A DNA stretch of 64,000 bases, from the IMG/VR virus record IMGVR_UViG_3300028374_000006; one strand, 5' to 3'. Positions within the stretch are counted from its first letter, which is position 1; each line of letters starts with the position of its first letter. The position numbers and the translations under genes were made by a program. The notes under the pieces were generated by a model. That model made no database searches, had not been told where the DNA came from, and worked only from the letters and a program-made list of their open reading frames with translations. Source of the stretch: a virus. Its lineage: Duplodnaviria > Heunggongvirae > Uroviricota > Caudoviricetes. Below, piece after piece: positions 18,082-45,232 of the stretch.

Positions 18082-18621
18082 TTAGCCTACGAGCATAGGG
18101 CGCAGTTGGTCCAGCATGGCTAGGAACAGTTTCCCGGTCATGTAGGCGTCGTCATAGGCGTTGTGGTGGTGGCCTTCGAAGGGGAGGTCGTAGTTTTTGA
18201 GCATTTTCATTAGACCGTTCCCCTTTCGAATGTCCCCCGCCTCGGCGATACGGTGGAAGTCGCAAAGTTTCCGAAGATCAAACATCTGGACTGTAGGGAC
18301 ATCGACCCCTAGCTTGACCGAATCTTTGTAGAGCTTTTGACAATCGTCACCCCATGCCGCAATACGTATGGGAGCGTCAAGCAGGTCGAGCTTAGACCAG
18401 AAGTCGGATAACGCTTTTTCAAGCGGTTTCCCGGCTTTAACGTCTTCTGGCGTTATCCCTGTGAGCTTGGAAATGTAGCTATTTGGTAGCTCACCGGGGT
18501 TGACGGTCTCGGAAAAGAAGGGTATAATATCGAGCTTGTGAATGTCGACACTTACCGCACCCACCTGAATAATTTTTCGGCTGGGCTGATTCATTTCAAG
18601 GTCGAGGACTATAAGTTTCAT
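18082..18621 (-). CDS. DEDDh 3'-5' exonuclease (DnaQ-like)
   Basis: Exo I 'LDLEMN' and Exo III 'HHNAYDDAYMTGKLF'. An alternative longer start at 18726 would overlap lon. Confidence 0.75.
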   Translation of the reverse strand: MKLIVLDLEMNQPSRKIIQVGAVSVDIHKLDIIPFFSETVNPGELPNSYISKLTGITPEDVKAGKPLEKALSDFWSKLDLLDAPIRIAAWGDDCQKLYKDSVKLGVDVPTVQMFDLRKLCDFHRIAEAGDIRKGNGLMKMLKNYDLPFEGHHHNAYDDAYMTGKLFLAMLDQLRPMLVG

Positions 18622-18715
18622 ACGTTCCAATCGGGCTTGATTTATCACGATAGCGGGTGTATTCTCTACGTAGCAAATATACTGGCTTACAAAGGCATCA
18701 TCAGGGATACGTTTT

Positions 18716-21073
18716 ATGGCAACCAATCAGTACTCAGTCTTACCGCTCCGAAACACGGTTCTTTTCCCCCACGCGGTTGTTCCGATTGGAGTCGGACGCC
18801 CCAAAAGCGTGGCCCTACTCGAAGAAGTTATGGGTGGGGACAAACAGATGGTCTTGCTTTCGCAACGTGACGAAGACGTTGACGAGCCGACGCAAGACGA
18901 TCTTTACGAGATTGGTACCGTCTGTTCGGTCTTGAAAGTTATTTCACAGGATGGGACGTACACGGCCATCGTACAGGGCGAGCGACGCATCCGCTTGACT
19001 GATTTGGAAGACGACCCGGACAAGGGTTATTTTTTCGGACAGTTCGAAGAGGTAGAAGAGCGCCGCACCTTTGACGATGCGGAAGGGGCTTTGGTCAAGT
19101 CGCTCAAGGATACGGCGACCGAGGTTATCGAAAATAGCCCGGACATCCCCTCCGAGTCTATCCAACTCATTCAAAACATGGAGGATCCGTCACGCTTGGC
19201 GGATTTCATCACCACCCATGCCAGCTTGGACGTCGCTGAGAAGCAAGAATTTTTGAGCGAGTTCGACATCAACACGCGGCTGGAAGGGTGCATCCGCATC
19301 ATGACGGAGCAAATCGAAATCTCGAAGGTGTCCGAAAAAATCCGGGAACGGATTCGTGAGCAATCGGACAGCCAGCAGCGAGAATATTACCTCCGTCAAC
19401 AGTTGAAAGCGATCCAAGAACAGCTTGGGACTTTCAACGACGAGACCGACGAATTGGAAACCCGCATTGAAGAGGCGGGTATGCCCGAAGAAGCCTACGA
19501 GGCTGCGATGAAGCAGTTCAACCGGCTTTCGGGGATGCAACAATCGTCGTCGGAGTACAGCGTCACCCTGAACTATATCGAAACGCTCATTGAAGTCCCG
19601 TGGGATCGCAAGAGCGAAGATAGCCTCAATCTGACGCGGGCACAGGCAGTCCTCGACGACGACCATTACGGTTTGGAAAAGGTCAAGGACCGCATCATTG
19701 AGTACCTCGCTGTTCGCGGCCTCAAGGCCGATATGAAAGGGCCTATCCTGTGCCTCCACGGACCCCCCGGCGTTGGTAAAACTTCGCTAGGTCGGTCGAT
19801 CGCCCGTACCTTGGGCCGGAAGTTCCAGCGTATCAGCCTTGGTGGTGTTCACGACGAGTCCGAGATTCGCGGCCACCGTCGTACCTATGTCGGAGCGCTT
19901 CCGGGACGTATTGTCCAAGCGGTCACGAAAGCAGGCACGACGAACCCCGTGATTTTGCTTGACGAAATCGACAAGGTGGGGCGTGATTTCCGGGGCGACC
20001 CGAGTGCGGCCCTCTTGGAGGTGTTGGATCCTGAGCAAAACCACGCATTCAGCGACCACTATCTGGAAGTAGATCTCGACCTTTCCCAAGTGCTGTTTAT
20101 CGCTACGGCCAACGGTCTGGACACGATTTCCCCGCCGCTTCGCGACCGGATGGAAATCATCGACGTGCCTTCTTACACGTTGTACGAAAAGCAGCAGATT
20201 GCCCAGCGGTTCCTTATCCCGAAGCAAATCGAAGCGCACGGCATCAGCGAAGACAATATCGAATTCCCCGAGGACACGGTTCGATACGTGGTCGACAAGT
20301 ACACCCGCGAAGCCGGTGTGCGTAACCTTGAGCGTCGGTTCGCGGATCTTTGCCGTAGCGTAGCGGTCGAGGTTGCTAAATCCGATCCCGATGATAGGGC
20401 TGCCATTCATATCGAAGTGGATAACGATTTTGTCCAAGAGGCCCTTGGACCGGAGCGTTACCTTTCCGAAGTGGCCCAACGGGTTAACCGAGTGGGTGTG
20501 GCGACGGGACTGGCATGGACGCAAAGCGGTGGCGATATCCTGTTCATCGAAGCGCAAGAAATGCCCGGTAAAGGCGACCTGAAACTCACCGGCCAACTTG
20601 GCGATGTGATGAAAGAGTCGGTTCACGCTGCCCTTTCCTACATCCGAGCCAATTCCGAGAAGTTCGGTGTGGACGCTAATTTCAACGAGAAGAAGTCCGA
20701 CGTCCATATCCACGTCCCAGCGGGGGCTATCCCCAAGGATGGTCCTAGCGCCGGTATCACGATGTTCACGGCCCTTCTGAGCCGCCTCACGAACGTCAAA
20801 GTGCGCAAAGACGTTGCTATGACGGGTGAAATCACCCTGTCGGGTAATGTGCTTCCCGTGGGCGGTATCAAGGAGAAGATTATCGCGGCGCACCGTGCGG
20901 GAATCAAGACGATCGTCATGCCCGCTATTTGCAAGAAAGACCTTGTGGATGTGGACGAGCACGTGAAGGGTGATTTGGAATTCCACTTTGTGGATGACGT
21001 CGCCGAGCTTTTGCCGCTGGTTTTCGAAAAAGACCCGGTTGAAGCGGTGAAGGCTGCACCTGCCGCTGAGTAA
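18716..21073 (+). CDS. lon: ATP-dependent Lon protease
   Basis: Lon N-domain 'LPLRNTVLFPHAVVPI', Walker A 'GPPGVGKTS', catalytic 'PKDGPSAGITM'. Confidence 0.92.
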   Translation: MATNQYSVLPLRNTVLFPHAVVPIGVGRPKSVALLEEVMGGDKQMVLLSQRDEDVDEPTQDDLYEIGTVCSVLKVISQDGTYTAIVQGERRIRLTDLEDDPDKGYFFGQFEEVEERRTFDDAEGALVKSLKDTATEVIENSPDIPSESIQLIQNMEDPSRLADFITTHASLDVAEKQEFLSEFDINTRLEGCIRIMTEQIEISKVSEKIRERIREQSDSQQREYYLRQQLKAIQEQLGTFNDETDELETRIEEAGMPEEAYEAAMKQFNRLSGMQQSSSEYSVTLNYIETLIEVPWDRKSEDSLNLTRAQAVLDDDHYGLEKVKDRIIEYLAVRGLKADMKGPILCLHGPPGVGKTSLGRSIARTLGRKFQRISLGGVHDESEIRGHRRTYVGALPGRIVQAVTKAGTTNPVILLDEIDKVGRDFRGDPSAALLEVLDPEQNHAFSDHYLEVDLDLSQVLFIATANGLDTISPPLRDRMEIIDVPSYTLYEKQQIAQRFLIPKQIEAHGISEDNIEFPEDTVRYVVDKYTREAGVRNLERRFADLCRSVAVEVAKSDPDDRAAIHIEVDNDFVQEALGPERYLSEVAQRVNRVGVATGLAWTQSGGDILFIEAQEMPGKGDLKLTGQLGDVMKESVHAALSYIRANSEKFGVDANFNEKKSDVHIHVPAGAIPKDGPSAGITMFTALLSRLTNVKVRKDVAMTGEITLSGNVLPVGGIKEKIIAAHRAGIKTIVMPAICKKDLVDVDEHVKGDLEFHFVDDVAELLPLVFEKDPVEAVKAAPAAE

Positions 21074-21141: not shown

Positions 21142-21441
21142 ATGGCCGAAATGCCCCCGGAAATGATGGTTCTATGCCCGTCTTGCATGGGCGAGAAAGT
21201 GGATTACGCCGAGTTGGAATCGGAAGAATGTTCCGAATGCGACGGTTTAGGTGAGTTGGAAGAGGTCCTATGCCCTACTTGCGAAGGTGAGGGGTGCCCC
21301 GCCTGTTTTGGTGAAGGCAAGCTCTACAACCTGCTTTGCCCGATGTGCGAAGGGGCCGGTATCAACGAATACCACCCCCAATGCCGAGCATGTCGAGGCA
21401 CCGGTTGGCGGCCTCATCCAGATTTTATGGAAGTAAAATAG
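21142..21441 (+). CDS. DnaJ-type zinc-finger protein (six CxxCxGxG repeats)
   Basis: CPSCMGEK, CSECDGLG, CPTCEGEG, CPACFGEG, CPMCEGAG, CRACRGTG. Confidence 0.7.
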   Translation: MAEMPPEMMVLCPSCMGEKVDYAELESEECSECDGLGELEEVLCPTCEGEGCPACFGEGKLYNLLCPMCEGAGINEYHPQCRACRGTGWRPHPDFMEVK

Positions 21442-21485: not shown

Positions 21486-21560
21486 GCGCCCGTGGCTCAG
21501 TCAGGACAGAGCAGGAGGTTTCTACCCTCCGGGTCGCAGGTTCGAATCCTGCCGGGCGTG
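21486..21560 (+). tRNA. tRNA-Arg (anticodon UCU)
   Basis: Cloverleaf: acceptor GCGCCCG/CGGGCGU, anticodon loop UUUCUAC, T-arm GCAGGTTCGAATCCTGC. Confidence 0.8.
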
Positions 21561-21624
21561 CTACCGCTATCTAGCGGTGAGACGACGAACCCTTACGATA
21601 CTTATGACTACAAGAGAGGTACAG

Positions 21625-22362
21625 ATGTCGTCACAGAAACAAGAGTCGATGTTCACGAACATTCAGCAGCGGTTCATGGAGTTCCTCAACGACGGTGCCG
21701 ACGACGTGTTCGCCCCGTTGGAGGAACGTGAGCGGAGCCTCGACCGTCGCAAGGGCCATTTGGACAAGCGTGCAAACGAATTGTCCCAAAAGGAAAGCAA
21801 TCTCGATCGTCGGGAAAAGAGCCTTGTGGCACGCGAAGATGCTCTTCAGCGCATGGCTGGGCAGCTCGAAAAGAAGCTCGACCAGCACGAGTCCAACGTG
21901 CGTGACTTTCAAGCCACGTACAGCGATTTCCGGTCGTCATTCCGGGACTTCGACGAACAGGTGCGCGGTCTGGTTGCGCCCGAAGATGCCGAAGGTTCAC
22001 GTGTCGTGGTCCTCGACGACGCCCGTTCGGGTCAATTGTTTTCGAAAGAAAGCAAGGCCAAGTTCATCGAAGGCGACGATCTCTGTCCTCGTGAGCGTCA
22101 GGTCTACGCTTTCATCCAGAACTATTGCGATGAGAACAAGACCCACGGGGTCTGCGACCTGACCAACCGTGAGTTGCACCGGATGATGGACTATACGATC
22201 CCCGAAGGGACCATCACCAGCGTCATCTGTACCCTCAACAAAGAGGGTGTGCTTGCGAGCAACAAGGTCGTCATTGACGGCAAAAGGCGTCGTGAGGTCG
22301 TGTTGAATTACCGGCTTCGCAACCCGGAACAGTTCATCGAAAGCGCCCGCAATTCCGCCTGA
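21625..22362 (+). CDS. coiled-coil protein with C-terminal winged-helix-like domain (paralog A)
   Basis: GAGAGG RBS. The C-terminus 'CTLNKEGVLASNKVVIDGKRRREVVLNYRLRNPEQF' is paralogous to the next gene. The ORF-track N-terminus (21472) overlaps tRNA-Arg and is rejected. Confidence 0.6.
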   Translation: MSSQKQESMFTNIQQRFMEFLNDGADDVFAPLEERERSLDRRKGHLDKRANELSQKESNLDRREKSLVAREDALQRMAGQLEKKLDQHESNVRDFQATYSDFRSSFRDFDEQVRGLVAPEDAEGSRVVVLDDARSGQLFSKESKAKFIEGDDLCPRERQVYAFIQNYCDENKTHGVCDLTNRELHRMMDYTIPEGTITSVICTLNKEGVLASNKVVIDGKRRREVVLNYRLRNPEQFIESARNSA

Positions 22363-22374
22363 ATCGAGGACCGC

Positions 22375-22926
22375 ATGGCTTCCGACGTTCAAGACCTGAA
22401 GCGTAAATTCAAGGCTCAACTGGCGTCCGTAGTGGACGAGATGTTCGAAGCCCTTGAGACATGCGCATCCGACCTTGAACGTCGGGAAGCCGAACTCCTT
22501 GAGCGTGAAGTTCTTGTCGAAGATTTCCAGCAAGAGCTAGAAGCCCTCAGAAGCGACTTAGAGGCGACGGACAATCACGCACGGTATAGCACCCCCGAAA
22601 CCTATGCGGTGGACGGAGACACGTTCCTAGCGGCCTCAGAATTACCGGAACGTGAGCGGCATATCCTAGCGACCTTGCAGGTTATGTCTAAGCGTGATGA
22701 ACAGGGCCGGTGGTCCGTAGTAGTATCAACCAAGGAGTTGATGCGGGCTGCCAGCACGAACTTTGACCCGGTGACGAGGGGCGCGGCCTCAGCTTGCTTG
22801 ACCCGCCTCACCCACAAAGGGTTGATCGCTACTGAATCTTTGAACGGGCAGGGGTATCCCCGCCGTATCGTTTTGAAGGTTCGGTTAGAAAGCCCACAGG
22901 AATTCACGTCGTATACGCCCGGATAG
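22375..22926 (+). CDS. coiled-coil protein with C-terminal winged-helix-like domain (paralog B)
   Basis: C-terminus 'CLTRLTHKGLIATESLNGQGYPRRIVLKVRLESPQEF'. The 3' end overlaps tRNA-Thr by ~10 nt. Confidence 0.6.
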   Translation: MASDVQDLKRKFKAQLASVVDEMFEALETCASDLERREAELLEREVLVEDFQQELEALRSDLEATDNHARYSTPETYAVDGDTFLAASELPERERHILATLQVMSKRDEQGRWSVVVSTKELMRAASTNFDPVTRGAASACLTRLTHKGLIATESLNGQGYPRRIVLKVRLESPQEFTSYTPG

Positions 22927-22989
22927 CTCAGTTGGCAGAGCATTTCATTCGTAACGAAAAGGTCGCCGGTTCGAATCCGGCTCCGGGCT
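22917..22989 (+). tRNA. tRNA-Thr (anticodon CGU)
   Basis: Acceptor GCCCGGA/UCCGGGC, anticodon loop UUCGUAA, T-arm GCCGGTTCGAATCCGGC. Confidence 0.8.
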
Positions 22990-23005
22990 TTTAGGGTAGG
23001 CAATT

Positions 23006-23152
23006 ATGTCCTCTGAGAAAGTGTGTCCCGACTGTGATCGCCCCTTTGGGAGTGTTGAGCCTCCCAAAACGCTGTATCCTTATTGGATCTCATGTGCGAC
23101 TTGCAATCAGATTTACGTGAATGTGGAGCCGGGAAAGGTCGAAAATGAGTGA
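23006..23152 (+). CDS. small zinc-ribbon protein (48 aa)
   Basis: MSSEKVCPDCDRPF...CATCNQ. CxxC...CxxC; absent from the ORF track because under 60 aa. Confidence 0.4.
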   Translation: MSSEKVCPDCDRPFGSVEPPKTLYPYWISCATCNQIYVNVEPGKVENE

Positions 23153-23348
23153 TCTCGAATTGACCGAAGAAGAACAGGCCGAAGCCGACGAACAAGTCCG
23201 TAAGATCAACGAATGGCTCCAGTCCGATAAGGGTAAGGAGTCTGTGCGTAGGGCCAGCGAAAAGTCCCGGCAGAGCCGCCTTGAAAGGGCACGCAAACGC
23301 CGTGATCGTCAGAACAAAGCTATTGCGGCCATGCGGAGCTTGACGTGA
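23145..23348 (+). CDS. hypothetical acidic/basic small protein
   Basis: ATG overlaps the upstream stop; MSDLELTEEEQAE... Confidence 0.45.
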   Translation: MSDLELTEEEQAEADEQVRKINEWLQSDKGKESVRRASEKSRQSRLERARKRRDRQNKAIAAMRSLT

Positions 23349-23647
23349 GGTATTGCCGGATTCTGTTTACCCCGAGCCATTTCGAGGGCGTGGAATTCCC
23401 CCTTGGTGTGTTGCTTGAAAACGACGCGGGTGCTGTGATCCCTGTCCGGGCGTCGAAGTATCCCAGCAAGAAGTTTCTAGGCCCCCGGTGTTACATCTTG
23501 CTACGCGCCCTGTTGGAAGATTTTGATAAGGCCACGGCTTTATCTAGTATGTCGAATCGAAGCCCCCATGCGTGGGCCGAAGAGACAAAAGAGGTTCCCG
23601 AACACGAGGACGACCCGGTTAAATGGGTTCGTCGCTGTTTACCCTAA
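23345..23647 (+). CDS. hypothetical protein
   Basis: ORF, overlapping start. Confidence 0.45.
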   Translation: MRYCRILFTPSHFEGVEFPLGVLLENDAGAVIPVRASKYPSKKFLGPRCYILLRALLEDFDKATALSSMSNRSPHAWAEETKEVPEHEDDPVKWVRRCLP

Positions 23648-23658
23648 CTAGGAACATT

Positions 23659-23856
23659 ATGATGACGAAAGAAGAAGTACAGCGGGTGCATGATCAGTTC
23701 GTAAAATACAACAATGCCCTTGACGACACGCCGGATGCAAAGCTCTTGGAAGCCTACAAGGCATGTCCCGGCTTGATGGGTTACATCCGGGGGTCGAAAG
23801 GGTTGTTTGCGGCTATTTGCAAGGCTTACGATATCGAGCCGCAATTTGCGTATTGA
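23659..23856 (+). CDS. hypothetical small protein
   Basis: ATG after an AGGAAC RBS-like sequence. Confidence 0.45.
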   Translation: MMTKEEVQRVHDQFVKYNNALDDTPDAKLLEAYKACPGLMGYIRGSKGLFAAICKAYDIEPQFAY

Positions 23857-23881
23857 CGTAGCGATACGTATCTGATAGTAT
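23853..23881 (+). promoter_or_regulatory. sigma70-like promoter TTGACG-17-TAGTAT driving tRNA-His
   Basis: -35/-10 with 17-nt spacer ending 11 nt before the tRNA; the spacer contains the recurring GATACGTAT motif. Confidence 0.6.
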
Positions 23882-23891
23882 CAAGATGTAT

Positions 23892-23968
23892 GGTGCCTGT
23901 GGCGGAATTGGTAGACGCGCCGCACTGTGACTGCGGTTTTACTGCGGGTTCAAGTCCCGTCAGGCACC
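23892..23968 (+). tRNA. tRNA-His (anticodon GUG) with encoded G-1
   Basis: Acceptor GUGCCUG/CAGGCAC with extra 5' G opposite C73, anticodon loop CUGUGAC, T-arm GCGGGTTCAAGTCCCGT; the variable region is an unusual 7 nt. Confidence 0.65.
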
Positions 23969-23982
23969 CTTTAGGAGACAGT

Positions 23983-24282
23983 ATGTCGTTTTTCAAGCGG
24001 ATCTTGGGCTTAGGCAACGGACCAGAGCAACGTGTGGTTCCTGTCAAGCCCAAGACCATACCTATTGATCTGGACAATTTGCCTCGTGGTATTTACACCA
24101 TCGGCAACCAGAATCTTTTTGTTGAGGGTACCGCTAAGTATGGGAGCGATGAGGTCGTTATTTTCCGGCCTATCCGAACCGAAGATTGGCGAGTGATGGA
24201 AATCATCGAATTCGCAACGTCTTACCTGTACACCGAAACGGATGTGGTCATAAACCAAGTTCAGACTAACCGGGCATTTTGA
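23983..24282 (+). CDS. hypothetical protein
   Basis: AGGAGA RBS + ATG 23983; the ORF-track N-terminus overlaps the tRNA and is rejected. Confidence 0.55.
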   Translation: MSFFKRILGLGNGPEQRVVPVKPKTIPIDLDNLPRGIYTIGNQNLFVEGTAKYGSDEVVIFRPIRTEDWRVMEIIEFATSYLYTETDVVINQVQTNRAF

Positions 24283-24537
24283 ATGTTGAAGTTCGCAGAG
24301 TACGAAAAGGTCGAAGGTCTGAAAAAGTGCAAGAAAAAGGCCCCGGCCCACGCCAAGAAGATCAACGAGCCTTTCAGTGTCGTGACGATGGAGGGCACTA
24401 TGACGGGCAAGGCCGGTGATTTTTTGATGCGGGGCGTTAAGGGTGAACTTTACGTCTGTGATGCTGAGATCTTCGAAGAAACTTACGAGTTCACCGGGCC
24501 GCTGGGTTTTGTCGAGATTGACCCTAATGACTACTGA
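24283..24537 (+). CDS. hypothetical protein
   Basis: ORF. Confidence 0.5.
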   Translation: MLKFAEYEKVEGLKKCKKKAPAHAKKINEPFSVVTMEGTMTGKAGDFLMRGVKGELYVCDAEIFEETYEFTGPLGFVEIDPNDY

Positions 24538-24763
24538 AGCAAGTCGCTACACCTATGTGATCAAGCATGATGAGGACGAGGGCTATTTCATTGGCTTTTG
24601 TCTGGAGTTCCCTCTGTTGTCCGCAGATGGACTTACAGTCGAGCAGGCGTATGCGGCGATCGAAGAAGTTGTTTTTTGCGCGATACAAGATTCAGTAACA
24701 GACGGGGATTCTTACCCGGCACCCCTGTCGGTTGATGAGGTCCTCGCAGAGTTGCACGCATGA
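24527..24763 (+). CDS. HicB-like (UPF0150) antitoxin-fold protein
   Basis: 'YTYVIKHDEDEGYFIGFCLEFPLLSADGLTVEQAYAAIEEVVFCAI' matches the HicB N-domain pattern. Confidence 0.6.
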   Translation: MTTEASRYTYVIKHDEDEGYFIGFCLEFPLLSADGLTVEQAYAAIEEVVFCAIQDSVTDGDSYPAPLSVDEVLAELHA

Positions 24764-24927
24764 TGCCCCTTTTACCTTTCAAGCAGATCGAAGCCTCCGA
24801 TACTGGCTACAGTGCTCTGGAGCCAATGGCGTTTACTGTTGTAAGCATCATGGTCTTTTTCTTAGCTGTCATGGTGTTGGTGATGCTGATCGCCCTTGTT
24901 TATGCCTTTTGGCGGGGCGATCAATGA
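24760..24927 (+). CDS. small single-TM membrane protein (holin-like, 55 aa)
   Basis: Hydrophobic 'FTVVSIMVFFLAVMVLVMLIALVYAFW'; ATGA overlaps on both sides. Confidence 0.45.
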   Translation: MMPLLPFKQIEASDTGYSALEPMAFTVVSIMVFFLAVMVLVMLIALVYAFWRGDQ

Positions 24928-25136
24928 AAACCCTTATTTTTCATATCGCTCGATGCGTCGGCTTCTTGATATTCATCATGGTGTTTGTCCTGTTGATGGC
25001 GCACCGGTATGATTACCCTTCCCTGTCGACATTTTCCTATCTGGTTGAAAACTGGTGGGTGGTTGCATGGGGTGACTTCCTCATGGTACTATCGGCGATA
25101 CTTATCGGTGCCGAAGATTTACAGGAAATGCTATGA
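24924..25136 (+). CDS. small two-TM membrane protein (holin-like, 70 aa)
   Basis: Two hydrophobic segments (LIFHIARCVGFLIFIMVFVLLMA; WWVVAWGDFLMVLSAILIGA). Confidence 0.5.
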   Translation: MKTLIFHIARCVGFLIFIMVFVLLMAHRYDYPSLSTFSYLVENWWVVAWGDFLMVLSAILIGAEDLQEML

Positions 25137-25384
25137 CGGCTATGGACGACTTGCTTGAATTCGCTACAGAGTACGTAGAAGAAGCGGGCGGTTCGATAGA
25201 TGAGGTCGAAGTCTCCAAGGCTGTAACTTTGCAATCCCTCCTTGACCTTACAGGCTATACGTGTTTACGTACTGAGCGCAGTAAGTTGGGGTACGAGATT
25301 TTCGAATATCAAGCGCCGGAAGGGGATGAGAAAGTCCTTTTGATGCTTGACGTCATGACTGGTAATTGGATATCGGTCATATAG
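25133..25384 (+). CDS. hypothetical acidic protein
   Basis: ORF with overlapping start. Confidence 0.45.
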   Translation: MTAMDDLLEFATEYVEEAGGSIDEVEVSKAVTLQSLLDLTGYTCLRTERSKLGYEIFEYQAPEGDEKVLLMLDVMTGNWISVI

Positions 25385-25427
25385 TCGGGAATGAGCAACA
25401 GGTATTCTGTTGTTGTCCCCAAAGCAC

Positions 25428-25501
25428 GCCCACGTAGCTCAGTCTGGCAGAGCGGCTACCTTGTAAGTAGCTGGTCGGCGGTTCGAATCCGTCCGTGGGC
25501 T
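25428..25501 (+). tRNA. tRNA-Thr (anticodon UGU)
   Basis: Acceptor GCCCACG/CGUGGGC, anticodon loop CUUGUAA, T-arm GGCGGTTCGAATCCGTC. Confidence 0.85.
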
Positions 25502-25505
25502 TGAG

Positions 25506-25766
25506 GTGAGTATGGACGATCTGAAAAACAAGATAATGCGTGACCCCGTAGGTAGGGAAGCGCTGCGTAAAGCACCCCGAATCAAAGGGGATTTACCTAT
25601 CTTGATCGTACTTACTGACGGGTCTAAGCACTGGTTTCGCCGGGCACGCTCGACGAACCAAGATTTCGACAAGTACGTGTTATTCGATGAGAACGGCGCG
25701 GAACTTGTTGATCTTTCCGCAGAGGCCCAATTGGAAGAGGAACTCGCAGCCTTGACCAAAGAATAG
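25506..25766 (+). CDS. hypothetical protein
   Basis: ORF between two tRNAs; GTG 25506 or ATG 25512. Confidence 0.45.
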   Translation: MSMDDLKNKIMRDPVGREALRKAPRIKGDLPILIVLTDGSKHWFRRARSTNQDFDKYVLFDENGAELVDLSAEAQLEEELAALTKE

Positions 25767-25773
25767 CTTTTAA

Positions 25774-25857
25774 GCCGAAGTGATGGAATTGGTAGACTTG
25801 CCTGATTCAAAATCAGGTGGCCTTCGGGTCGTGTGGGTTCGACTCCCACCTTCGGCA
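25774..25857 (+). tRNA. tRNA-Leu (anticodon CAA), class II
   Basis: Acceptor GCCGAAG/CUUCGGC, D-arm GGAATTGGTAGA, anticodon loop UUCAAAA, long variable arm, T-arm GTGGGTTCGACTCCCAC. Confidence 0.85.
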
Positions 25858-25867
25858 CTTATCCCCT

Positions 25868-26374
25868 ATGAAAAAGATCCTTACATTCAACGTTTTCAGG
25901 GCACTCCGTGATCTCCCCCGAATGAAAGAGGCCGGTACGGACTATGCTCTGGTGGAGTTTGTTTCCCCACCTTCCGAACCACTGTGGGCTATCTTCGAAG
26001 AGGATAACCCGCGCCACGAGTTCTTTTGCTTTGACGACGTGACGTCCCCGTGGGCCGTCTCCACGGCTTCTTTGGCCGGGTACCAAGCGCCAACCGATGA
26101 CGATATCCAAAGGCTTCTCGATGCGTCTGATACGCTCCTAGAGGCTGAGTACGTCTATTGTCATTGTGAAGCGGGTATCAGCCGGTCTACGGCTGCAGCT
26201 TACATCCTCCATTGTATTGATCTAGGTCCGGGCCTGCGCCGGGAAGTATGGTGCAGAGGTCCAAAATGGTCGCATGGATCCTTTGGATGTGGAAACAATA
26301 GACCCGTCGTACACGACGTTAAAAGATCAAAATTAAGCCCCCGTGGCCCAAATGGAATGAGGCACGGCACTTAA
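25868..26374 (+). CDS. CX5R protein tyrosine / dual-specificity phosphatase
   Basis: 'VYCHCEAGISRSTAAAYI' (HCxxGxxRS) active site. The 3' tail overlaps the next tRNA, so the true stop is uncertain. Confidence 0.7.
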   Translation: MKKILTFNVFRALRDLPRMKEAGTDYALVEFVSPPSEPLWAIFEEDNPRHEFFCFDDVTSPWAVSTASLAGYQAPTDDDIQRLLDASDTLLEAEYVYCHCEAGISRSTAAAYILHCIDLGPGLRREVWCRGPKWSHGSFGCGNNRPVVHDVKRSKLSPRGPNGMRHGT

Positions 26375-26413
26375 AATGCCGGTTAGTTGTGGGTTCGAGT
26401 CCCACCGGGGGTA
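26337..26413 (+). tRNA. atypical tRNA, anticodon UAA (Leu-type) with class-I architecture, A73
   Basis: Acceptor GCCCCCG/CGGGGGU, anticodon stem CGGCA/UGCCG, loop CUUAAAA, only 7-nt variable region, T-arm GTGGGTTCGAGTCCCAC. Confidence 0.6.
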
Positions 26414-26434
26414 CTTGAATACTGGAGTTACGGC

Positions 26435-26650: not shown

Positions 26651-26720
26651 GATCGGGCCTTTGGGGACATTTACAATAAGCATTATCAAGCGATAATGAA
26701 TCCAACAGAAAGGGACAGAA

Positions 26721-26975
26721 ATGCCGGATAACTATTCGATGGACATTGAATTTTACGATGATGAGGATACAGCCGGGTCAGATCACCCATTCGAATTTCA
26801 CGAATTTTCGCACCCTGTTCCCGTACCGAATGTGTCGGAAGAAGTGGTTGTAGGGGGACGGGGCGAAGATTTTAGTATGGTTAGGGGTACTATTAAGCGT
26901 CGTAAGTTCATGTATTACAGCGTCGATAGTAAATTGCGTGTGATGCTTTACTTGACCGGGGTTGAAAATGCGTGA
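26721..26975 (+). CDS. hypothetical protein
   Basis: ORF. Confidence 0.45.
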   Translation: MPDNYSMDIEFYDDEDTAGSDHPFEFHEFSHPVPVPNVSEEVVVGGRGEDFSMVRGTIKRRKFMYYSVDSKLRVMLYLTGVENA

Positions 26976-27696
26976 CAACAAAACGAAAAAATCGCCCTAC
27001 CACGACGTCCGAGTCACCAAAGGGGTCTACGGCGAACTGTCGAAGATTCAAGAGGAACTGGATGAGGCCGTTGACGCCGATATCCGGGGCCTCGACTTAC
27101 TGGTTCTGATAGAGCTTGCGGATGTGATCGGTGCTGTCGCCGGTGTGGCCGAAGAGCAATATGGCTTCGACCTCGATCAACTGATTGCCTTCAGCGAAAT
27201 GGTCCGGGGTGTTAAGTCGAAAGAGGCTGCCCAAGCCCAAGAAAATCTGGAACAGGCCAAGCAATCCCTCGAAGCCGCCAAAGCCTCACGCCGAGAACTT
27301 GAGGGGGGCTGGGAAGTTATCTGTCGGCGCATCTGGGATAACCCTTCCATTCCGATGGCCGCAAAGATCGGCAGGATGCAGGACCGTTACCTAAATCACC
27401 CGGAAGAATTGCCGCTCAAGATTCTGGAGCCGGGGGATGAACCGATGATTTGCGATGTCTTTGAAAAGCAAGGCTGGAAGTTTGATCTGGATGAGGATTT
27501 CAACCGTGGCGAGCGGGAAATGATTAACCATTTCGGCGGCCTCCGAGCATTCGCTGCTTTACTGACTGAGAAATTCACCGAACAAGCCGAACAGTATGGC
27601 CGCAAGCCTAAAGGGCTGGCTGGTGAAATGATTGGCGAAAATGGGAAATCCAGCGGGCCAGTCTTCAACCCGAAACAGTATGGCACCGATGAGTGA
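26962..27696 (+). CDS. MazG-like nucleotide pyrophosphohydrolase domain protein
   Basis: 'GELSKIQEELDEAVDA...LVLIELADVIGAV' all-alpha NTP-PPase pattern in the N-terminal ~90 aa, with a long C-terminal extension. Confidence 0.55.
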   Translation: MKMRDNKTKKSPYHDVRVTKGVYGELSKIQEELDEAVDADIRGLDLLVLIELADVIGAVAGVAEEQYGFDLDQLIAFSEMVRGVKSKEAAQAQENLEQAKQSLEAAKASRRELEGGWEVICRRIWDNPSIPMAAKIGRMQDRYLNHPEELPLKILEPGDEPMICDVFEKQGWKFDLDEDFNRGEREMINHFGGLRAFAALLTEKFTEQAEQYGRKPKGLAGEMIGENGKSSGPVFNPKQYGTDE

Positions 27697-28378
27697 TTAC
27701 ACGATCGAAGATGGGGTGGTGCATTTAGGACCCGAGCTATCGGAACTGGAGCGCCGCCTTTTTCGAATGTTCGAAGAGCGATTGATCGCCAAGGGTTTCA
27801 AGTACCTGTCGGTCCCTTCCTCTTTGAAATGGTCATCGCTTCGCAAACAAGGCACAGTCACCGTAGATCACACCCTGAACGTGGACGAGGTGCATTGTCT
27901 GGCGGGTTCGGCGGAGCAGGGTATCTTGGAGCGATATGCGGGCCAAAACGTCGAGCCGATGCTCCTGTACGCTGAGAACGCCTGTTTCCGTACCGAAGAT
28001 GAGTACGAGGGTTTGCGGTCGTGCAAAGAGTTCCGCAAACTAGAACAGTATGCCTTTGTTGATCCCGACGAATGGGAAAGGGTATTTTTCGAATTGCTGT
28101 CCAATGCGCTTCGGTTCCTAGAAGACCTTGGGATTGAATGCCGCGCCCGTGATTGCACCAAAGACGATCCGGGTTATCACCATTACAAAGTCGACATTGA
28201 GGTCTGGACTGAGCAATACGGCTGGCTAGAAACCCACTCGTGTTCGTATTTCGCCGATGAGCAGATCAAGCGGTTTTCGATTGGTGGCGACGTGCATTCG
28301 ATTTCTAACACCGGCCTTGCCTCCCCACGTGTATTGATCCCGTTTATTGAACAAGGAATAGGTCCCGATGACTTGTAA
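27680..28378 (+). CDS. seryl-tRNA synthetase catalytic-core homolog lacking the N-terminal tRNA-binding arm
   Basis: Class II motif 2 'FRTEDEYEGLRSCKEFRKLEQYAFV'. SerRS signature 'YKVDIEVWTEQYGWLETHSCSYFADEQIKRF' (cf. bacterial 'YDLEVW...EISSCSN..DFQARR'). Motif 3 'HSISNTGLASPRVLIPFIEQ'. Only 233 aa. Confidence 0.75.
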   Translation: MAPMSDYTIEDGVVHLGPELSELERRLFRMFEERLIAKGFKYLSVPSSLKWSSLRKQGTVTVDHTLNVDEVHCLAGSAEQGILERYAGQNVEPMLLYAENACFRTEDEYEGLRSCKEFRKLEQYAFVDPDEWERVFFELLSNALRFLEDLGIECRARDCTKDDPGYHHYKVDIEVWTEQYGWLETHSCSYFADEQIKRFSIGGDVHSISNTGLASPRVLIPFIEQGIGPDDL

Positions 28379-28967
28379 AGTATTGCCTGTAATCCACGTT
28401 TCTGAAACGCGCCAAGTGTTGCGTAACGTGGACATTGTTCTAAAAGCCGAAGCTGACGGCGTGTTTCTTGTGAACCACGATAAGGATTGGCAGCATTTGC
28501 AACGTGTCGTAAAGGCGGTGCAGGATTTTGCCCCCGATCTGTGGCTAGGGATCAATTCGCTTGACCTACATCCCAAGCAGGCGTTCGGCTTTTTCAAAAG
28601 CGTGGACGGTATCTGGACCGACAACGGCGGTATCGACGAGCGTTCGAAAGAGCAGCCACATGCGACTATGATCCGTGACGCCCGCGCTAACTATGATGGT
28701 CTGTATTTCGGTGGCGTTGCGTTCAAGTATCAGAGGCCCGTTTACAACGTCGTAGGGGCCGCCGAGATTGCGACTGACTACATGGACGTCGTGACGACCG
28801 TAACGCCGATTACAGATTGGCAAGAGTCAATCAATTATCGTGTGTTCGGATTGGCCGAAGACTATATGGGGTATGATGATCCGGGCTATGCTGAATCTGA
28901 AAGAGCAAAAGGCCCGGAACCCGAAATCGTCAAGTTTTTGGATTGGGCAGTGGAGCAATACGGATGA
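28368..28967 (+). CDS. TIM-barrel-like protein (BtpA/SgcQ-family-like?)
   Basis: 'VLPVIHVSE', 'DGVFLVNHD', 'LWLGINSLD' loosely match BtpA-family patterns. Translationally coupled to the SerRS-like gene. Confidence 0.35.
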   Translation: MTCKVLPVIHVSETRQVLRNVDIVLKAEADGVFLVNHDKDWQHLQRVVKAVQDFAPDLWLGINSLDLHPKQAFGFFKSVDGIWTDNGGIDERSKEQPHATMIRDARANYDGLYFGGVAFKYQRPVYNVVGAAEIATDYMDVVTTVTPITDWQESINYRVFGLAEDYMGYDDPGYAESERAKGPEPEIVKFLDWAVEQYG

Positions 28968-29290
28968 TAGGCGGATTTGATGTAGTGATACCGGTGCATA
29001 GGCCGATTGAAGGGGTCAAGCCTAAGATCATTGCTGCGTTCCGTTCGATATGGCCGGAAATGGTGCTTGAAGATCTCGAAGAGGAACCGGGTCGCTGGGA
29101 GTTGTTCATCCACAAAGACCAGTTGGCTTTGGATCGGTGGGCCGGGGGCGAAGAAGAACGCGCCGAATACGACATTGAGGACATGGTACAGGTTATCTGG
29201 GACCGTGGTGAAATAACCCTCGTGTTCGATAGGGAAGGCAAATTCGAAAAGGAAACGACCCAAAAAGTCTGCGAAGCGCTCTTGACTTGA
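28964..29290 (+). CDS. hypothetical protein
   Basis: ATG 28964 overlaps the upstream stop. Confidence 0.45.
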   Translation: MIGGFDVVIPVHRPIEGVKPKIIAAFRSIWPEMVLEDLEEEPGRWELFIHKDQLALDRWAGGEEERAEYDIEDMVQVIWDRGEITLVFDREGKFEKETTQKVCEALLT

Positions 29291-29347
29291 TCCCCCATAC
29301 GTAGTAAATCTGATACGCAATACTCACCCCCACTGTAGGAGACGTCA

Positions 29348-30877
29348 ATGACGACCCAAATGAATGCCCGCAACAACCGAGATTTCATCCGTATGTATTC
29401 GCTCGACTTGGCGAATTACGTCAACGATGTGGTTTCGAGAAAGTCTTACGTCGAAGCCACTTCGCTGGCTGTTTATTTCGTAGAAATGTGTGAGGAAGTA
29501 GTCTTTTCCCACACGAAATTCCCGTTGATCGGCACCAAGCTCTACGGCTTGACGCACAACCGGGAACAGAATTCGCTCGACATGAACTACCTCATTTTGC
29601 AAGAGGTAGCTGGTCGATCCGAAATGGATTACGAAAACATCCTTTATCACGTGGACCGCTTTCTGGCGCGCACTGAAAAGGGCCTCCGCCATTCGATGAT
29701 CCAATGCCTGCCGCCGTTCATTCAGGCTACCCGTGACGTTCTGGCAGACGCCGTAAAGAGCGGTGAAGCCCGTGGCAAGATCACAAGGGACGACCTCCCT
29801 CTGTATCTCGAAGCCCATAACCGGGCTGTAGCGAGGCACCTCGCATCCCGTGCGGACGACCCCAACGTTCCGATCGATGAGTACCGCTCCTTGGAAGATA
29901 TCCAAGAGTCCAAAGCGCACCTTGTGTTCCAGAACATGAGCGAATCGCTGAGTAAGACGCTGGCCGCTTTCGTGTATTTGGATGCCCAAGGCGAACGGTA
30001 CAGTCAGTCGGATGTGGTACGGCTTACTGGTATGACAACTTCGCTGGTATCGTCGGCTACGGAGTGGCTTCTGGACCATGCTTTCATCAACCGTGATCCA
30101 CGCCAGCGCTATTACTCGACAACGGTGACGTTCGACGGTCTTACCGTTGATGAGGCACGTAACCTCGTCAATACGGTACCGGTCGAAACTGAGCCGACTT
30201 CGAGCATCGAAAACCTTACGTGGTTGCAGGGCCTTATTTACGCCACGCTCCAAGAGTTGGCGGTCGAGGATGATCAGGTTCAGATTGGTGGCGACGAACT
30301 GGTCACTATCGCGACCCGCACACGTTGGACGGCCTCCAACGGCACGACGTCGGCTGCGATCAGTGGTCTGGAAGACCGGGGCCTTATCGCCCGGAACACC
30401 GGAACCAAGCCGTACACGTACATCGTGACGGAGCGCAACGAACCGCAAGTCATTTTCTCGAACGTGACGCCCGGTGATCAACCCGAGGTCCAAGAGGTCC
30501 TGCAGCTAGAGCCGCAAGACGATGTGACCTTTGCGGCTGTCGAAGCCCCGGCGAATGTTATCCAAGGTGGGCAAGTTACCATGCGACCTGTGGAAGTAGG
30601 TGGGCAAACCGTTACCGAGGTAACGCCTTCCGAAAATCAAGCTCCTGTTCCCCAACGATATTCGATGGGGTCGCTGGAAGACCGCCAACAGAGGCTGGCC
30701 ACGTCTAATTTGGAATTGCTCATTGACGACCTTATTGAAAGTCGTCTGAACATGTTGAACCCGGAGGTGGCCCTCGATATCATCACGAATGGCCGGGTGC
30801 GGGCGAATTTCGACGAAACTACTGGTACCAAGACCATTAGTTTTGAACTGTCGGAAGACGAGCGTATCGAAGACTGA
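29348..30877 (+). CDS. hypothetical 509-aa protein with two winged-helix-like segments
   Basis: Long ORF; 'DVVRLTGMTTSLVSSATEWLLDHAFI' and 'SAAISGLEDRGLIARNTG' look like wHTH recognition helices/wings. Confidence 0.55.
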   Translation: MTTQMNARNNRDFIRMYSLDLANYVNDVVSRKSYVEATSLAVYFVEMCEEVVFSHTKFPLIGTKLYGLTHNREQNSLDMNYLILQEVAGRSEMDYENILYHVDRFLARTEKGLRHSMIQCLPPFIQATRDVLADAVKSGEARGKITRDDLPLYLEAHNRAVARHLASRADDPNVPIDEYRSLEDIQESKAHLVFQNMSESLSKTLAAFVYLDAQGERYSQSDVVRLTGMTTSLVSSATEWLLDHAFINRDPRQRYYSTTVTFDGLTVDEARNLVNTVPVETEPTSSIENLTWLQGLIYATLQELAVEDDQVQIGGDELVTIATRTRWTASNGTTSAAISGLEDRGLIARNTGTKPYTYIVTERNEPQVIFSNVTPGDQPEVQEVLQLEPQDDVTFAAVEAPANVIQGGQVTMRPVEVGGQTVTEVTPSENQAPVPQRYSMGSLEDRQQRLATSNLELLIDDLIESRLNMLNPEVALDIITNGRVRANFDETTGTKTISFELSEDERIED

Positions 30878-30902
30878 TGACTTGATACGTTAGCAGTACG
30901 AA

Positions 30903-30932
30903 CCCCTCCCTTATCGGAGGGGTTTTTCTTTT
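30903..30932 (+). terminator. rho-independent terminator (CCCCTCC-loop-GGAGGGG + TTTTTCTTTT)
   Basis: Strong GC hairpin plus T-run after CDS 29348..30877. Confidence 0.75.
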
Positions 30933-35285: not shown

Positions 35286-35873
35286 ATGTGTGAACAATGC
35301 CTAGCCGAGACGGTAACGGTGGCCATTATCGAAGGCCCACCGACACCCGAGGCTACACAGCAAGACCTTGATTTAGGTCGTGTTACTACGGGCTGGTACG
35401 TAGCTGTCGCTACCAAGGCGGCTTACGATTTCGTCCCCGGCGACGTGTTTGTGGGCAGGATAAACGACCCAGACATGGTGCTTACGGACGACCTTTTCGA
35501 TATGGAAGAGTGGACTGCCGAAGACGAGGACGAAAACGCCCTCGACCATCTTCGTGGTGGCCCCGTAAATTCCCTGTCGGAATATGAGGATTCACCTCTG
35601 GCGTCAGACCGGTTCATTTTCGGCGAAGGCAATACCAACATTTTCCATCCCGATTTCGAGACGGGTGGTAAAGGCGATTGGTGGGTGGCCGTGCCAAGCA
35701 TCGTACACGATTTCGAAGAGACGTTCGGTGCGCCCCCTAGAGGGTTCGGTATTTGGACTGCATGGCCTATCGCCAAGGTGGCAGAGGTATTTCGGGAACA
35801 CGGAGTTCCTTACGACAAGGAAGGGCGCTTGAAATGGGCGCTCGAAAACAAGGAAAACAATGACGATTCGTGA
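35286..35873 (+). CDS. hypothetical protein
   Basis: CCAGAGGTG RBS + ATG 35286. Confidence 0.5.
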   Translation: MCEQCLAETVTVAIIEGPPTPEATQQDLDLGRVTTGWYVAVATKAAYDFVPGDVFVGRINDPDMVLTDDLFDMEEWTAEDEDENALDHLRGGPVNSLSEYEDSPLASDRFIFGEGNTNIFHPDFETGGKGDWWVAVPSIVHDFEETFGAPPRGFGIWTAWPIAKVAEVFREHGVPYDKEGRLKWALENKENNDDS

Positions 35874-36360
35874 CCTAGTGCTATATCCGAATGACGTTTT
35901 GATTCAGCCGACTATCGAGGTTGAAGCAACGTCGGAAGATACCCATGCCTTGGTGCAGGATCTCGTCGATACCATGCACAATGCGAAAGGTGTCGGCTTG
36001 GCTGCCCCGCAAGTGGGTGAGTCTAAGCGGGTATGTATCGTAGAGTTCGAGGATGAACTACACGTGCTGGTTAATCCCCGCATTCTAGAGTGGGAAGGCA
36101 CCCCCGAAGCCGACGAAGAAGGGTGCCTTAGTTTCCCCGGTGTGTATACCCCTGTCGAAAGGTCGCCGAAGATCCGGGTTAAGTATCAGACCCCCGAGGG
36201 TGATGATATCGACCGGGAAGTTGAAGGGTTCTTAGCCCGAGCCTTTCAGCACGAAATCGACCACCTCAACGGCGTTCTGTTCATCGACCGAATGAGTGCT
36301 CTGCGCAAGCGGATGGCGCTGAAAAAGTATCGCAAGTTCCTGAACCGGAGGAACAAATGA
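35860..36360 (+). CDS. def: peptide deformylase
   Basis: Motifs 'GVGLAAPQVG', 'EGCLSFPGV', 'QHEIDHLNG'. Confidence 0.9.
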   Translation: MTIRDLVLYPNDVLIQPTIEVEATSEDTHALVQDLVDTMHNAKGVGLAAPQVGESKRVCIVEFEDELHVLVNPRILEWEGTPEADEEGCLSFPGVYTPVERSPKIRVKYQTPEGDDIDREVEGFLARAFQHEIDHLNGVLFIDRMSALRKRMALKKYRKFLNRRNK

Positions 36361-36770
36361 GCGACGATTTAGACATCGAAAACATGAGCGACGACGAGTT
36401 GCGGACCGAAGTTGCGGACATGGGTGAAAACATGGTCCGTAAGGTTTGCCAGCAGCTAGCTGTTTATTACCTTCGCAAGATCGACGAAGCAACGCTAGGA
36501 CAAATCGACCAAACGCTGTTCGAGGACGAGTCAGAGGTTCATCTTTATGAGGTGGTGAAACAGGTGGCCGAGGATATTCGGCGGCTTGAAGCTGCACGTG
36601 AACATAAAAAAGCGTTCCTAGCTCTCAAAGACCTTACCGAACCCCTTGCGGTTTTTTTCGAAAGTGTGATGGTCATGGCTGACGATGAGGCCGTGAAGCA
36701 AAACCGAATGCGCCTGCTCGCCGAGGTACGGGATACGTATCTTATGTTAGCTGATTTCTCTTTTCTCTGA
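36357..36770 (+). CDS. stand-alone homolog of glycyl-tRNA synthetase beta-subunit C-terminal (anticodon-binding) region
   Basis: 'EPLAVFFESVMVMADDEAVKQNRMRLLAEVRDTYLMLADFS' closely resembles the GlyS C-terminal 'FFDNVMVMAEDEALRNNRLALL...ADIS'. ATGA overlap with def. Confidence 0.6.
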   Translation: MSDDLDIENMSDDELRTEVADMGENMVRKVCQQLAVYYLRKIDEATLGQIDQTLFEDESEVHLYEVVKQVAEDIRRLEAAREHKKAFLALKDLTEPLAVFFESVMVMADDEAVKQNRMRLLAEVRDTYLMLADFSFL

Positions 36771-43532: not shown

Positions 43533-43622
43533 GGAGCGCTTGGCATGTGGTACGCCAGCCGGTTTTGAAAACCGTGTGGTCGCCGGAAGGCGGCTTAGGG
43601 GTTCGACCCCCCCTGCGCTCCT
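43533..43622 (+). tRNA. tRNA-Ser (anticodon UGA), class II
   Basis: Acceptor GGAGCGC/GCGCUCC, anticodon loop UUUGAAA, long variable arm, T-arm GGGGTTCGACCCC. Confidence 0.75.
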
Positions 43623-43635
43623 TGAGGAGTTATGG

Positions 43636-43857
43636 ATGGCTGAATGGGAGCGCCAAATAGCGGGTGAAGACGTAGACGCCATTATAGGTACCTGTATCTG
43701 TTGTGGTCTTGCCGCTCAAATGGCTGTGACTTTGTTCAATTACGAAGGCGCTGATCCCATTCAAATGTGTGACCTTTGCTATTCGATAACCGAAGACAAC
43801 GATTTGGACCCGATTGAAGTAGCGGCGTCTTGCGTTGTTGACGATTTAGAGGAATAG
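43636..43857 (+). CDS. hypothetical Cys-rich small protein
   Basis: 'CICCGL...CDLCYS'; the ORF-track N-terminus overlaps the tRNA and is rejected. Confidence 0.45.
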   Translation: MAEWERQIAGEDVDAIIGTCICCGLAAQMAVTLFNYEGADPIQMCDLCYSITEDNDLDPIEVAASCVVDDLEE

Positions 43858-43862
43858 CATAC

Positions 43863-43951: not shown

Positions 43952-44002
43952 CTTCATTACCATTTCAAGGGTGTGGATAATTCATTTATCTTCGGGTAAG
44001 GT

Positions 44003-44712: not shown

Positions 44713-44736
44713 TGGCTGCTCCTTCGGTAAGTTAGG

Positions 44737-45192: not shown

Positions 45193-45232
45193 CCTTGACG
45201 ACCTACGAGGTTATGTGGTACGTATTATATAC

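Follow-up and report, generated by a model that had tools for sequence, protein, structure and literature searches.

Truncated paralogs of aminoacyl-tRNA synthetases (aaRSs) have repeatedly turned out to perform unexpected chemistry, for example, elongation factor P (EF-P) lysylation, tRNA glutamylation, carrier-protein loading, and asparagine synthesis. The 64,000-nucleotide (nt) stretch of the Caudoviricetes virus record IMGVR_UViG_3300028374_000006, a jumbo phage, analyzed here and hereafter called the window, encodes a protein of this kind, namely, a stand-alone catalytic core of seryl-tRNA synthetase (SerRS) without the tRNA-binding arm, together with a MazG-like protein encoded immediately upstream. 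The core is similar in kind to the amino acid:carrier-protein ligases, PoxA/EpmA, YadB, AsnA, and HisZ, but is a member of none of these groups. Across related loci, the core and the MazG-like gene were found to form a conserved pair.

Compared with canonical bacterial and mitochondrial SerRS (Thermus thermophilus 1SER and human mitochondrial SerRS 7U2A), the phage core shares class II motifs 1–3 and the serine and ATP residues, whereas it differs in having no arm, a shorter motif-2 loop, a deletion before motif 3, a family score below the cut-off, and a MazG-like partner. The amino acid:carrier-protein ligases Bll0957 and Atu2573 are likewise SerRS-derived class II cores without a tRNA-binding domain, presumably adenylating a small amino acid, and the initial annotation had drawn this analogy. 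The shared architecture held; however, these ligases descend from the methanogen-type (zinc-dependent) SerRS lineage, whereas the phage core descends from canonical SerRS. Moreover, no PP-binding match was found among the module neighbors, in agreement with the initial remark that no carrier-protein gene was visible nearby. As both lineage and carrier protein differ, the core does not belong to this ligase group. PoxA/EpmA, which acts with EpmB in EF-P beta-lysylation, is likewise a class II core that has lost its tRNA-recognition domain and works with a radical S-adenosylmethionine (SAM) enzyme encoded close by. However, EpmA is derived from lysyl-tRNA synthetase and EpmB is a pyridoxal phosphate (PLP)-dependent aminomutase, whereas the radical SAM protein of the phage loci has 263 amino acids (aa) and is absent from the window.

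Two further systems combine a similar core or partner with nucleotide chemistry. In HisZ/HisG with HisE (PRA-PH), an aaRS-like core of class II likewise shares one nucleotide-modifying pathway with a small pyrophosphohydrolase of the MazG/PRA-PH type. HisZ is derived from histidyl-tRNA synthetase (HisRS) and catalytically dead, whereas the phage core derives from SerRS and retains an intact active site, and no HisG-like gene is present. A HisZ-type regulatory paralog was rejected, since the core is neither HisRS-derived nor degenerate and lacks a HisG partner. In phages with 2-aminoadenine genomes, the MazG-like enzyme MazZ is encoded beside PurZ, an amino acid–nucleotide ligase, and supplies its nucleoside monophosphate (NMP); this arrangement served as the model for the mechanism proposed below. 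PurZ is an adenylosuccinate-synthetase homolog rather than an aaRS, and PurZ, DatZ, and DpoZ were not detected here. The closest annotated counterparts are gp287/gp286 of phage G, gp011/gp012 of phage BpSp, and labeled genes of Escherichia phages, which belong to the same families as the window pair. These labels were assigned without experiments, and "Histidyl tRNA synthetase" among them is a mislabel. The core is a member of phrog_4806 and the MazG-like protein of phrog_6408, with 50–55% identity to the phage G and BpSp proteins. The pair was located in the window as follows.

26968–27696, + strand: MazG-like protein, 242 aa, matching phrog_6408 (1e-20); an alternative TTG start at 26962 would give 244 aa
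26986–27225, + strand: conserved MazG-like domain, residues ~9–88, matching phrog_6408
27689–27696, + strand: start/stop overlap of 8 nt between the MazG-like gene and the SerRS core, ATGAGTGA, read from the sequence
27689–28378, + strand: arm-less SerRS catalytic core, 229 aa, with class II motifs 1–3; an alternative ATG at 27680 would give 232 aa

The initial annotation had described the open reading frame (ORF) at 27680–28378 as an arm-less SerRS homolog, and this description was borne out. The core matched Pfam tRNA-synt_2b (7.4e-11, above the cut-off), phrog_4806 (1.2e-30), and NCBIfam serS (TIGR00414; 3e-12), the last with 46.3 bits, which is below the 301.65-bit equivalog cut-off. Thus, profile search assigned the ORF to an aaRS family and to no non-aaRS family. 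Its best solved relatives by sequence were all canonical SerRS (1ser, 5e-10), and a 32-member family profile matched canonical SerRS at 2.3e-24, aligned to T. thermophilus residues 158–396. Since the alignment to T. thermophilus SerRS begins only at residue ~158–178, the whole N-terminal coiled-coil arm is absent. About 50 further residues are missing as well. Compared with SerRS, approximately the first 150 residues are lacking. The motif-2 loop has lost 5 residues, as the motif-2 spacer has 10–11 residues in 32 of 32 family members versus 15 in the T. thermophilus and phage Kabachok SerRSs, and 8 residues are deleted before motif 3.

In contrast to these losses, the active site appears complete. 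The 32 family members share 31 invariant positions, including SAE77–79, R104/E106 (motif 2), E122, E184/S187, T211, and R217 (motif 3), which align with the T. thermophilus motifs TAE, fRsE, KvEQ, rETHS, NNT, and tPR. The residues that bind seryl-adenylate (Ser-AMP) in the T. thermophilus enzyme are T225/E227, R256/E258, E279, E345/S348, T380, and R386. Judged by this alignment, all ATP- and serine-binding residues are kept, which makes the formation of seryl-adenylate by the core very likely. The AlphaFold model built from the family alignment had a compact fold with a predicted local distance difference test (pLDDT) score of 95.7. The core is considered to be the intact, probably dimeric, catalytic domain of a canonical-type SerRS. 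Its net charge and isoelectric point gave no discrimination, the T. thermophilus catalytic domain being just as acidic.

An identical protein (P0001, 229 aa, starting at 27689) occurs on contigs up to 231 kb, and 81 homolog clusters, mostly of 214–241 aa with 39–70% identity, were retrieved from a large protein database, on contigs up to 888 kb. A full-length SerRS split by a frameshift just upstream, named in the initial annotation as a possible refutation, was sought and none was found. A split enzyme was rejected because the upstream ORF is MazG-like rather than Seryl_tRNA_N, the window holds no N-domain (tblastn with a full-length phage SerRS matched the core alone), and family lengths are uniform.

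Residues ~9–88 of the MazG-like protein matched phrog_6408 at 9.6e-21, and the best Pfam match was PRA-PH, with a sub-threshold E value of 0.0045. A profile of 24 sequences gave weak matches only, to the MazG-like structure 1vmg (E 0.07) and to PRA-PH 2a7w (E 0.14). The metal-binding motif EExxE...ExxD (E23, E24, E27, E43, and D46) is invariant in the 24 sequences, as is the preceding Ser-Lys. The AlphaFold2 model was mediocre (pLDDT 66.6), with helices at 24–41 and 45–67. A fold search with it was non-specific and returned mostly generic helical matches, HisIE and dimeric dUTPase among them. The assignment as MazG-like was accepted on motif and family grounds and is not proven. Public contigs encode a protein identical over 242 aa (P0202), and the 160-aa C-terminal helical extension, with a predicted 56-residue helix, is common only to P0203 and, in part, locus L017. 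The Ser45 of an "ELSD" motif conserved in the small-partner family is Ala in the window; thus, this position is not a phosphopantetheine site.

To describe the linkage of the two genes, 71 loci with relatives of the core were fetched and all their ORFs were clustered. As many of the metagenomic loci come from few related samples, the locus counts overstate the number of independent events. In 63 of 72 core loci, the MazG-like gene was found ahead of the core and in the same orientation, and it was the only broadly shared gene; most loci without it were ended by the contig edge. The spacing between the two genes was mostly −8 to +20 nt, usually an overlap of 4–8 nt or a gap within 20 nt, and −8/−4 overlaps were present in many relatives. 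In a reciprocal search of IMG/VR with the MazG-like profile, 53 of 60 loci carried an adjacent SerRS-derived class II core of 180–250 aa.

Fusion proteins joined the two families as well. A search with the window MazG-like domain gave 524 representative clusters. The best 147 of these included one MazG–SerRS-core fusion, six fusions with a smaller core (the mini core, described below) in both orders, two with radical SAM, one with a CYTH (triphosphate tunnel) domain, and 13 tandem MazG-like repeats. The MazG–SerRS-core fusions are P0224 and P0054, the latter being additional to those among the best 147 clusters, and the mini-core fusions include P0240, P0283, P0296, P0300, and P0347. The CYTH fusion is a 264-aa protein in one representative cluster (P0243), and Pfam analysis of ten fused MazG-like proteins revealed CYTH as the sole other partner. 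Single fusion proteins may be sequencing frameshifts, but eight separate clusters in two orders make this unlikely as a general explanation. The conserved adjacency, the coupling-type overlaps, and the repeated fusions indicate that the core is functionally tied to the upstream MazG-like gene, with which it is probably translationally coupled.

Other genes were found near the pair in single lineages. In Justusliebigvirus, a gene with a GatB/YqeY domain directly follows the MazG-like and mini-core genes and precedes NrdD/NrdG (5592–6026 of L144, Escherichia phage JLBYU50; also L112 and L113). GatB/YqeY as a general partner was rejected because it is confined to this one clade. In L075, a 383-kb contig binned as Chitinophagales and probably a phage, a T4 Rnl1-type RNA ligase gene (6161–7327) lies two genes upstream of the pair.

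A third component, which the initial annotation had missed, is a radical SAM protein of ~263 aa encoded between the MazG-like gene and the core in 38 loci. It carries the motifs CxxxCxxC, GNGEPS, and RIQTSG (Pfam 1.7e-5) and occurs in fusions with the MazG-like domain, with either partner first (L034/P0208; L037, L137–L141, L102, and P0263). The protein matched NrdG2 at 3.8e-5, with 23 bits versus a 131-bit cut-off, and EpmB at an E value of 9e-5, in the cluster region only and far below the family cut-off; it lacks the PLP-binding part of the aminomutases. Other generic matches were HxsC, viperin, and the radical SAM domain protein 6y1x (0.0015). By these comparisons, the protein belongs to a radical SAM family without a close characterized relative. 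Neither NrdD nor any other recurrent neighbor of the radical SAM gene was found among the loci, and many of the lineages that bear it are probably anaerobic. The three genes of L072 make up a + strand island within a − strand region. The contig with this locus, ENA contig_19565 (887,875 bp), exceeds every phage genome known to us; it may be bacterial, come from a very large phage, or be misassembled. The cassette of MazG-like, radical SAM, and core genes is also present in L004.

The pair extends into a larger superfamily in isolated phages, which the initial annotation had likewise not noticed. Among the 53 MazG-like loci with an adjacent core, 11 had the SerRS-type core and the rest had the mini core of ~185 aa. 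Homology of the mini core to the SerRS-type family was shown by hhalign (98.6%, 5e-16), and the solved structures closest to it were again SerRS. A tblastn search with one mini core detected at least 281 isolated phage genomes, with 112 from Escherichia and 61 from Acinetobacter; other hosts were Caulobacter, Klebsiella, Pectobacterium, Cronobacter, Microcystis, Campylobacter, and more. The window MazG-like domain matched 143 phage records by tblastn, with host groups largely those of the mini core. GenBank labels for the mini core read "putative seryl-tRNA synthetase" or "histidyl tRNA synthetase", and the neighboring gene is labeled "putative phosphoribosyl-ATP pyrophosphatase" in some records. 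Brevundimonas phage Kabachok encodes a SerRS of full length (435 aa) and also, at a distance of 112 kb, a separate pair of MazG-like and mini-core genes; thus, the pair is distinct from an ordinary SerRS. No description of the pair, the fusions, or the radical SAM link was found in full-text searches or in reviews on aaRS paralogs and jumbo-phage comparative genomics; as the literature covered is incomplete, a prior description is possible. The pair is a member of a large phage module that has already been annotated but is apparently uncharacterized.

The preferred reading, which we hold at somewhat less than an even chance, is that the core is a tRNA-independent seryl-adenylate ligase that would act, in complex with a nucleoside triphosphate (NTP) pyrophosphohydrolase, on a nucleotide-derived substrate. 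The core would make seryl-adenylate and, joined with the MazG-like enzyme in one complex, pass the serine to an acceptor other than tRNASer. This acceptor would most likely be a nucleotide or a nucleotide-derived molecule. The MazG-like partner may supply or process this acceptor (NTP to NMP and pyrophosphate), in the manner of MazZ, which feeds PurZ, or of HisE, which acts after the HisZ/HisG step. Where present, the radical SAM enzyme may modify it. A nucleotide context for the acceptor is suggested by the MazG-like/radical SAM fusions, the CYTH–MazG-like fusion, and the NrdD/NrdG neighbors in Justusliebigvirus. A more far-reaching version is possible, though on balance doubtful, namely, a new two- or three-enzyme machine, present in large phages with many different hosts, in which the SerRS-derived adenylating core is physically joined to the MazG-type pyrophosphohydrolase and, in anaerobic lineages, to a new radical SAM enzyme. 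Such a machine would link serine, or a group derived from it, to a nucleotide or to an end or base of a nucleic acid.

The surroundings of the pair in the window were also analyzed. The further features of the gene string are as follows.

26670–26697, + strand: promoter-like site TTTACA-16-GATAAT, 10/12, upstream of the gene string (consensus match only)
26721–26975, + strand: ORF of 84 aa without a family match; other loci lack it, and its stop overlaps the MazG-like start (ATGCGTGA)
28368–28967, + strand: chimeric ORF in which the N-terminal ~144 aa of BtpA/SgcQ continue in frame into the final ~60 aa encoded by a DUF7768 gene
28786–28799, no strand assigned: microhomology of 14 nt at the point where the window lacks 1,220 nt present in L146 (blastn blocks overlap by 14 nt)
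28943–29290, + strand: small ORF, 115 aa, without a family match; the 108-aa gene of L146 corresponds to a start at 28964
29348–30877, + strand: ORF of 509 aa with winged-helix matches
30900–30925, + strand: strong terminator-like hairpin, 10 pairs and a T run, after the 509-aa ORF (consensus-type match only)

The hairpin is a possible candidate for the end of a transcription unit covering 26721–30877, although the number of promoter-like and terminator-like sites in the region was not above that of shuffled controls. The ORFs lie at the coordinates given initially, and the overlapping stop and start codons reported there were found as described. The 84-aa ORF and the MazG-like gene overlap by 8 nt (26968–26975), the MazG-like gene and the core by 8 nt, and the core and the BtpA-like ORF by 11 nt (ATGACTTGTAA, 28368–28378). 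From these overlaps, it had been proposed that four genes (MazG-like, SerRS-like, BtpA-like, and small ORF) act together. Co-occurrence analysis upheld the MazG-like gene with the core but not the four-gene set. Among the 71 loci, the BtpA-like gene, the small ORF, and the 509-aa ORF were found only in L017, and a strain variant, L146, also has them; among more than 140 loci, the BtpA-like gene and the small ORF were confined to these two.

The proposed BtpA-like barrel was confirmed as to homology, with more than 1000 homologs carrying PF03437 (BtpA/SgcQ) at ~50% identity over 73% of the query. However, this homology is limited to residues 1–~146, and the rest comes from another gene. The homologs have ~230–240 aa and continue with conserved SGPGTG and IASGI segments, both of which are missing from the window protein. 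The origin of the chimera is apparent from L146, which is 99.9–100% identical to the window apart from two differences. One is a segment of 1,220 nt (11112–12331 of L146) that is missing from the window, with the 14-nt microhomology at the junction. There, a complete BtpA gene (224 aa) is followed by genes of 77, 125, 191 (DUF7768), and 108 aa, and the deletion took out the C-terminal third of BtpA, both small genes, and the larger part of the DUF7768 gene. The full 224-aa BtpA is retained in both L146 and the closest relative, L017. As the BtpA–DUF7768 chimera is present on seven public contigs, it is a real variant, and an intact BtpA gene is dispensable. Based on these comparisons, the BtpA-like gene and the small ORF are regarded as bystanders outside the conserved module. 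The other difference is an insertion of 1,122 nt in L146 (7423–8544) at window position 26232/26233, which carries an ORF of 170 aa and a gene for an HNH_3 endonuclease; it resembles a mobile cassette of the homing-endonuclease type with a present/absent polymorphism in the population.

In the wider window, 12 tRNA genes lie in two arrays (21486–26414 and 43533–49650) with small ORFs interleaved. Six of them are at 21486–26414, and the module begins 550 nt past this array. The three tRNA-Ser genes noted initially are present at 43533–45321, as is the dUTPase (12033–12707). The reported "GlyRS-beta fragment" does contain an anticodon-binding domain, but proved to be a stand-alone 137-aa DALR_1 domain (36357–36770) of the type found in arginyl-tRNA synthetase and the beta subunit of glycyl-tRNA synthetase. 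It directly follows a peptide deformylase gene (35860–36360) and, after the SerRS core, is the second fragment of an aaRS that stands alone in this phage. L074 also encodes a peptide deformylase, ~7 kb downstream of its core, and in that locus a zinc-finger ORF sits between the MazG-like gene and the core; this ORF resembles the small DnaJ-type CxxCxGxG zinc-finger protein of the window (21142–21441), which there follows a full-length 785-aa Lon protease (18716–21073). A stand-alone 159-aa CYTH protein is encoded at ~48036–48545, about 20 kb downstream of the module. The window also encodes a Type ISP-like restriction-modification protein of 1,353 aa (53217–57278; Eco57I/Type_ISP_C matches), an N6_N4 DNA methyltransferase (~58900–59990), and three RNase_T-type exonucleases (18082–18726 on the − strand, 51256–51804, and 51806–52375). 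No genes for thymidine hypermodification or 2-aminoadenine were seen in the Pfam context of the window. Nearly all predicted genes lie on the + strand, and the cumulative GC skew climbs over the whole window. Megablast of the module region against 50,697 phage records gave no match.

Several of these observations weigh against a ligase acting on nucleotides. The module follows a tRNA array in the window, which points to tRNA rather than nucleotides, and tRNA-Ser genes adjoin it in six loci (L014, L038, L057, L074, L088, and L118). A gene with a tRNA-binding-type GatB/YqeY domain follows the pair in one clade, the Rnl1-type ligase lies close by in L075, and the window encodes the peptide deformylase and the DALR domain. 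In addition, membership of the partner in the MazG family rests on motifs and sub-threshold scores, and no radical SAM gene of this kind was found in the window or in the aerobic-host phages G and BpSp. The same tRNA-related features, along with the intact Ser-AMP site, the 12 tRNA genes of the window (three for serine), and the position of the MazG-like domain in the fusions, where it occupies the place of the SerRS arm, would fit a minimal working SerRS that charges phage or host tRNASer, or that re-charges or protects damaged tRNASer 3' ends, possibly with the MazG-like protein or some other tRNA-binding factor assisting in trans. This explanation, the main rival, is considered unlikely. 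Both tRNA-contacting elements are missing or shortened, and E. coli SerRS loses efficient tRNA charging, but not adenylation, when the arm is deleted. A tRNA gene was found within 5–6 kb in about 18 of 85 loci and none in about 67 of 85, YqeY is restricted to one clade, and Kabachok has a full-length SerRS besides the pair. Moreover, the partner keeps catalytic metal ligands that an RNA-binding adaptor would not need.

Other explanations take the adenylating site and the missing tRNA domain as their starting point. The core may turn seryl-adenylate and an NTP into Ap4N-type dinucleoside polyphosphates, with the MazG-like enzyme setting the level of these alarmones or making a co-substrate. T. 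thermophilus SerRS makes diadenosine tetraphosphate (Ap4A) in crystals, partners of this type are predicted to act on nucleoside polyphosphates, and a CYTH–MazG-like fusion exists. However, the radical SAM partner would be left without a role, and it would be futile, in the absence of regulation, to fuse a synthase to a hydrolase that acts on related compounds. The explanation is quite improbable. Little probability was also assigned to serylation of a protein or carrier, as in PoxA/EpmA or the amino acid:carrier-protein ligases, with the radical SAM enzyme, where present, remodeling either the amino acid or its target, in analogy to EpmB and EF-P. A class II core without a tRNA domain plus a radical SAM enzyme matches the EpmA/EpmB architecture, and the weak EpmB match agrees with it, but no carrier protein or PP-binding domain was found among the neighbors, the "ELSD" serine is replaced in the window, the radical SAM protein lacks the aminomutase PLP-binding part and scores far below the family cut-off, and the partner resembles an enzyme rather than a substrate. 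A pathway of all four genes is very improbable. The four overlap or abut on one strand between the promoter-like site and the terminator-like hairpin; however, two of them are limited to L017 and L146, the window BtpA is a truncated chimera without SGPGTG/IASGI that nevertheless persists on seven contigs, and the unrelated 84-aa ORF upstream is joined by the same type of overlap. The idea that the core is a decaying, functionless fragment of a captured serS is hardly credible at all. The core is half the length of SerRS and its BtpA neighbor is visibly decaying, but the 81 clusters of near-uniform length, the 31 invariant positions including catalytic ones, the confident compact fold, the conserved partner, and the recurrent fusions argue against it.

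If the more far-reaching version is correct, the module would represent a new class of aminoacyl-nucleotide or nucleic-acid modification chemistry in phage–host conflict. The core is an independent offshoot of canonical SerRS with an unusual, obligatory partner, and it is carried by hundreds of isolated phages. As the superfamily occurs in tractable phages, namely, the E. coli phAPEC8-like and phi92-like phages, Bacillus phage G, and the Caulobacter phiCbK-like phages, the use of seryl-adenylate without tRNA by phages is directly testable. The comparison also corrects database labels, since these genes encode neither histidyl- nor ordinary seryl-tRNA synthetases and should not be counted as evidence for the translational autonomy of phages.

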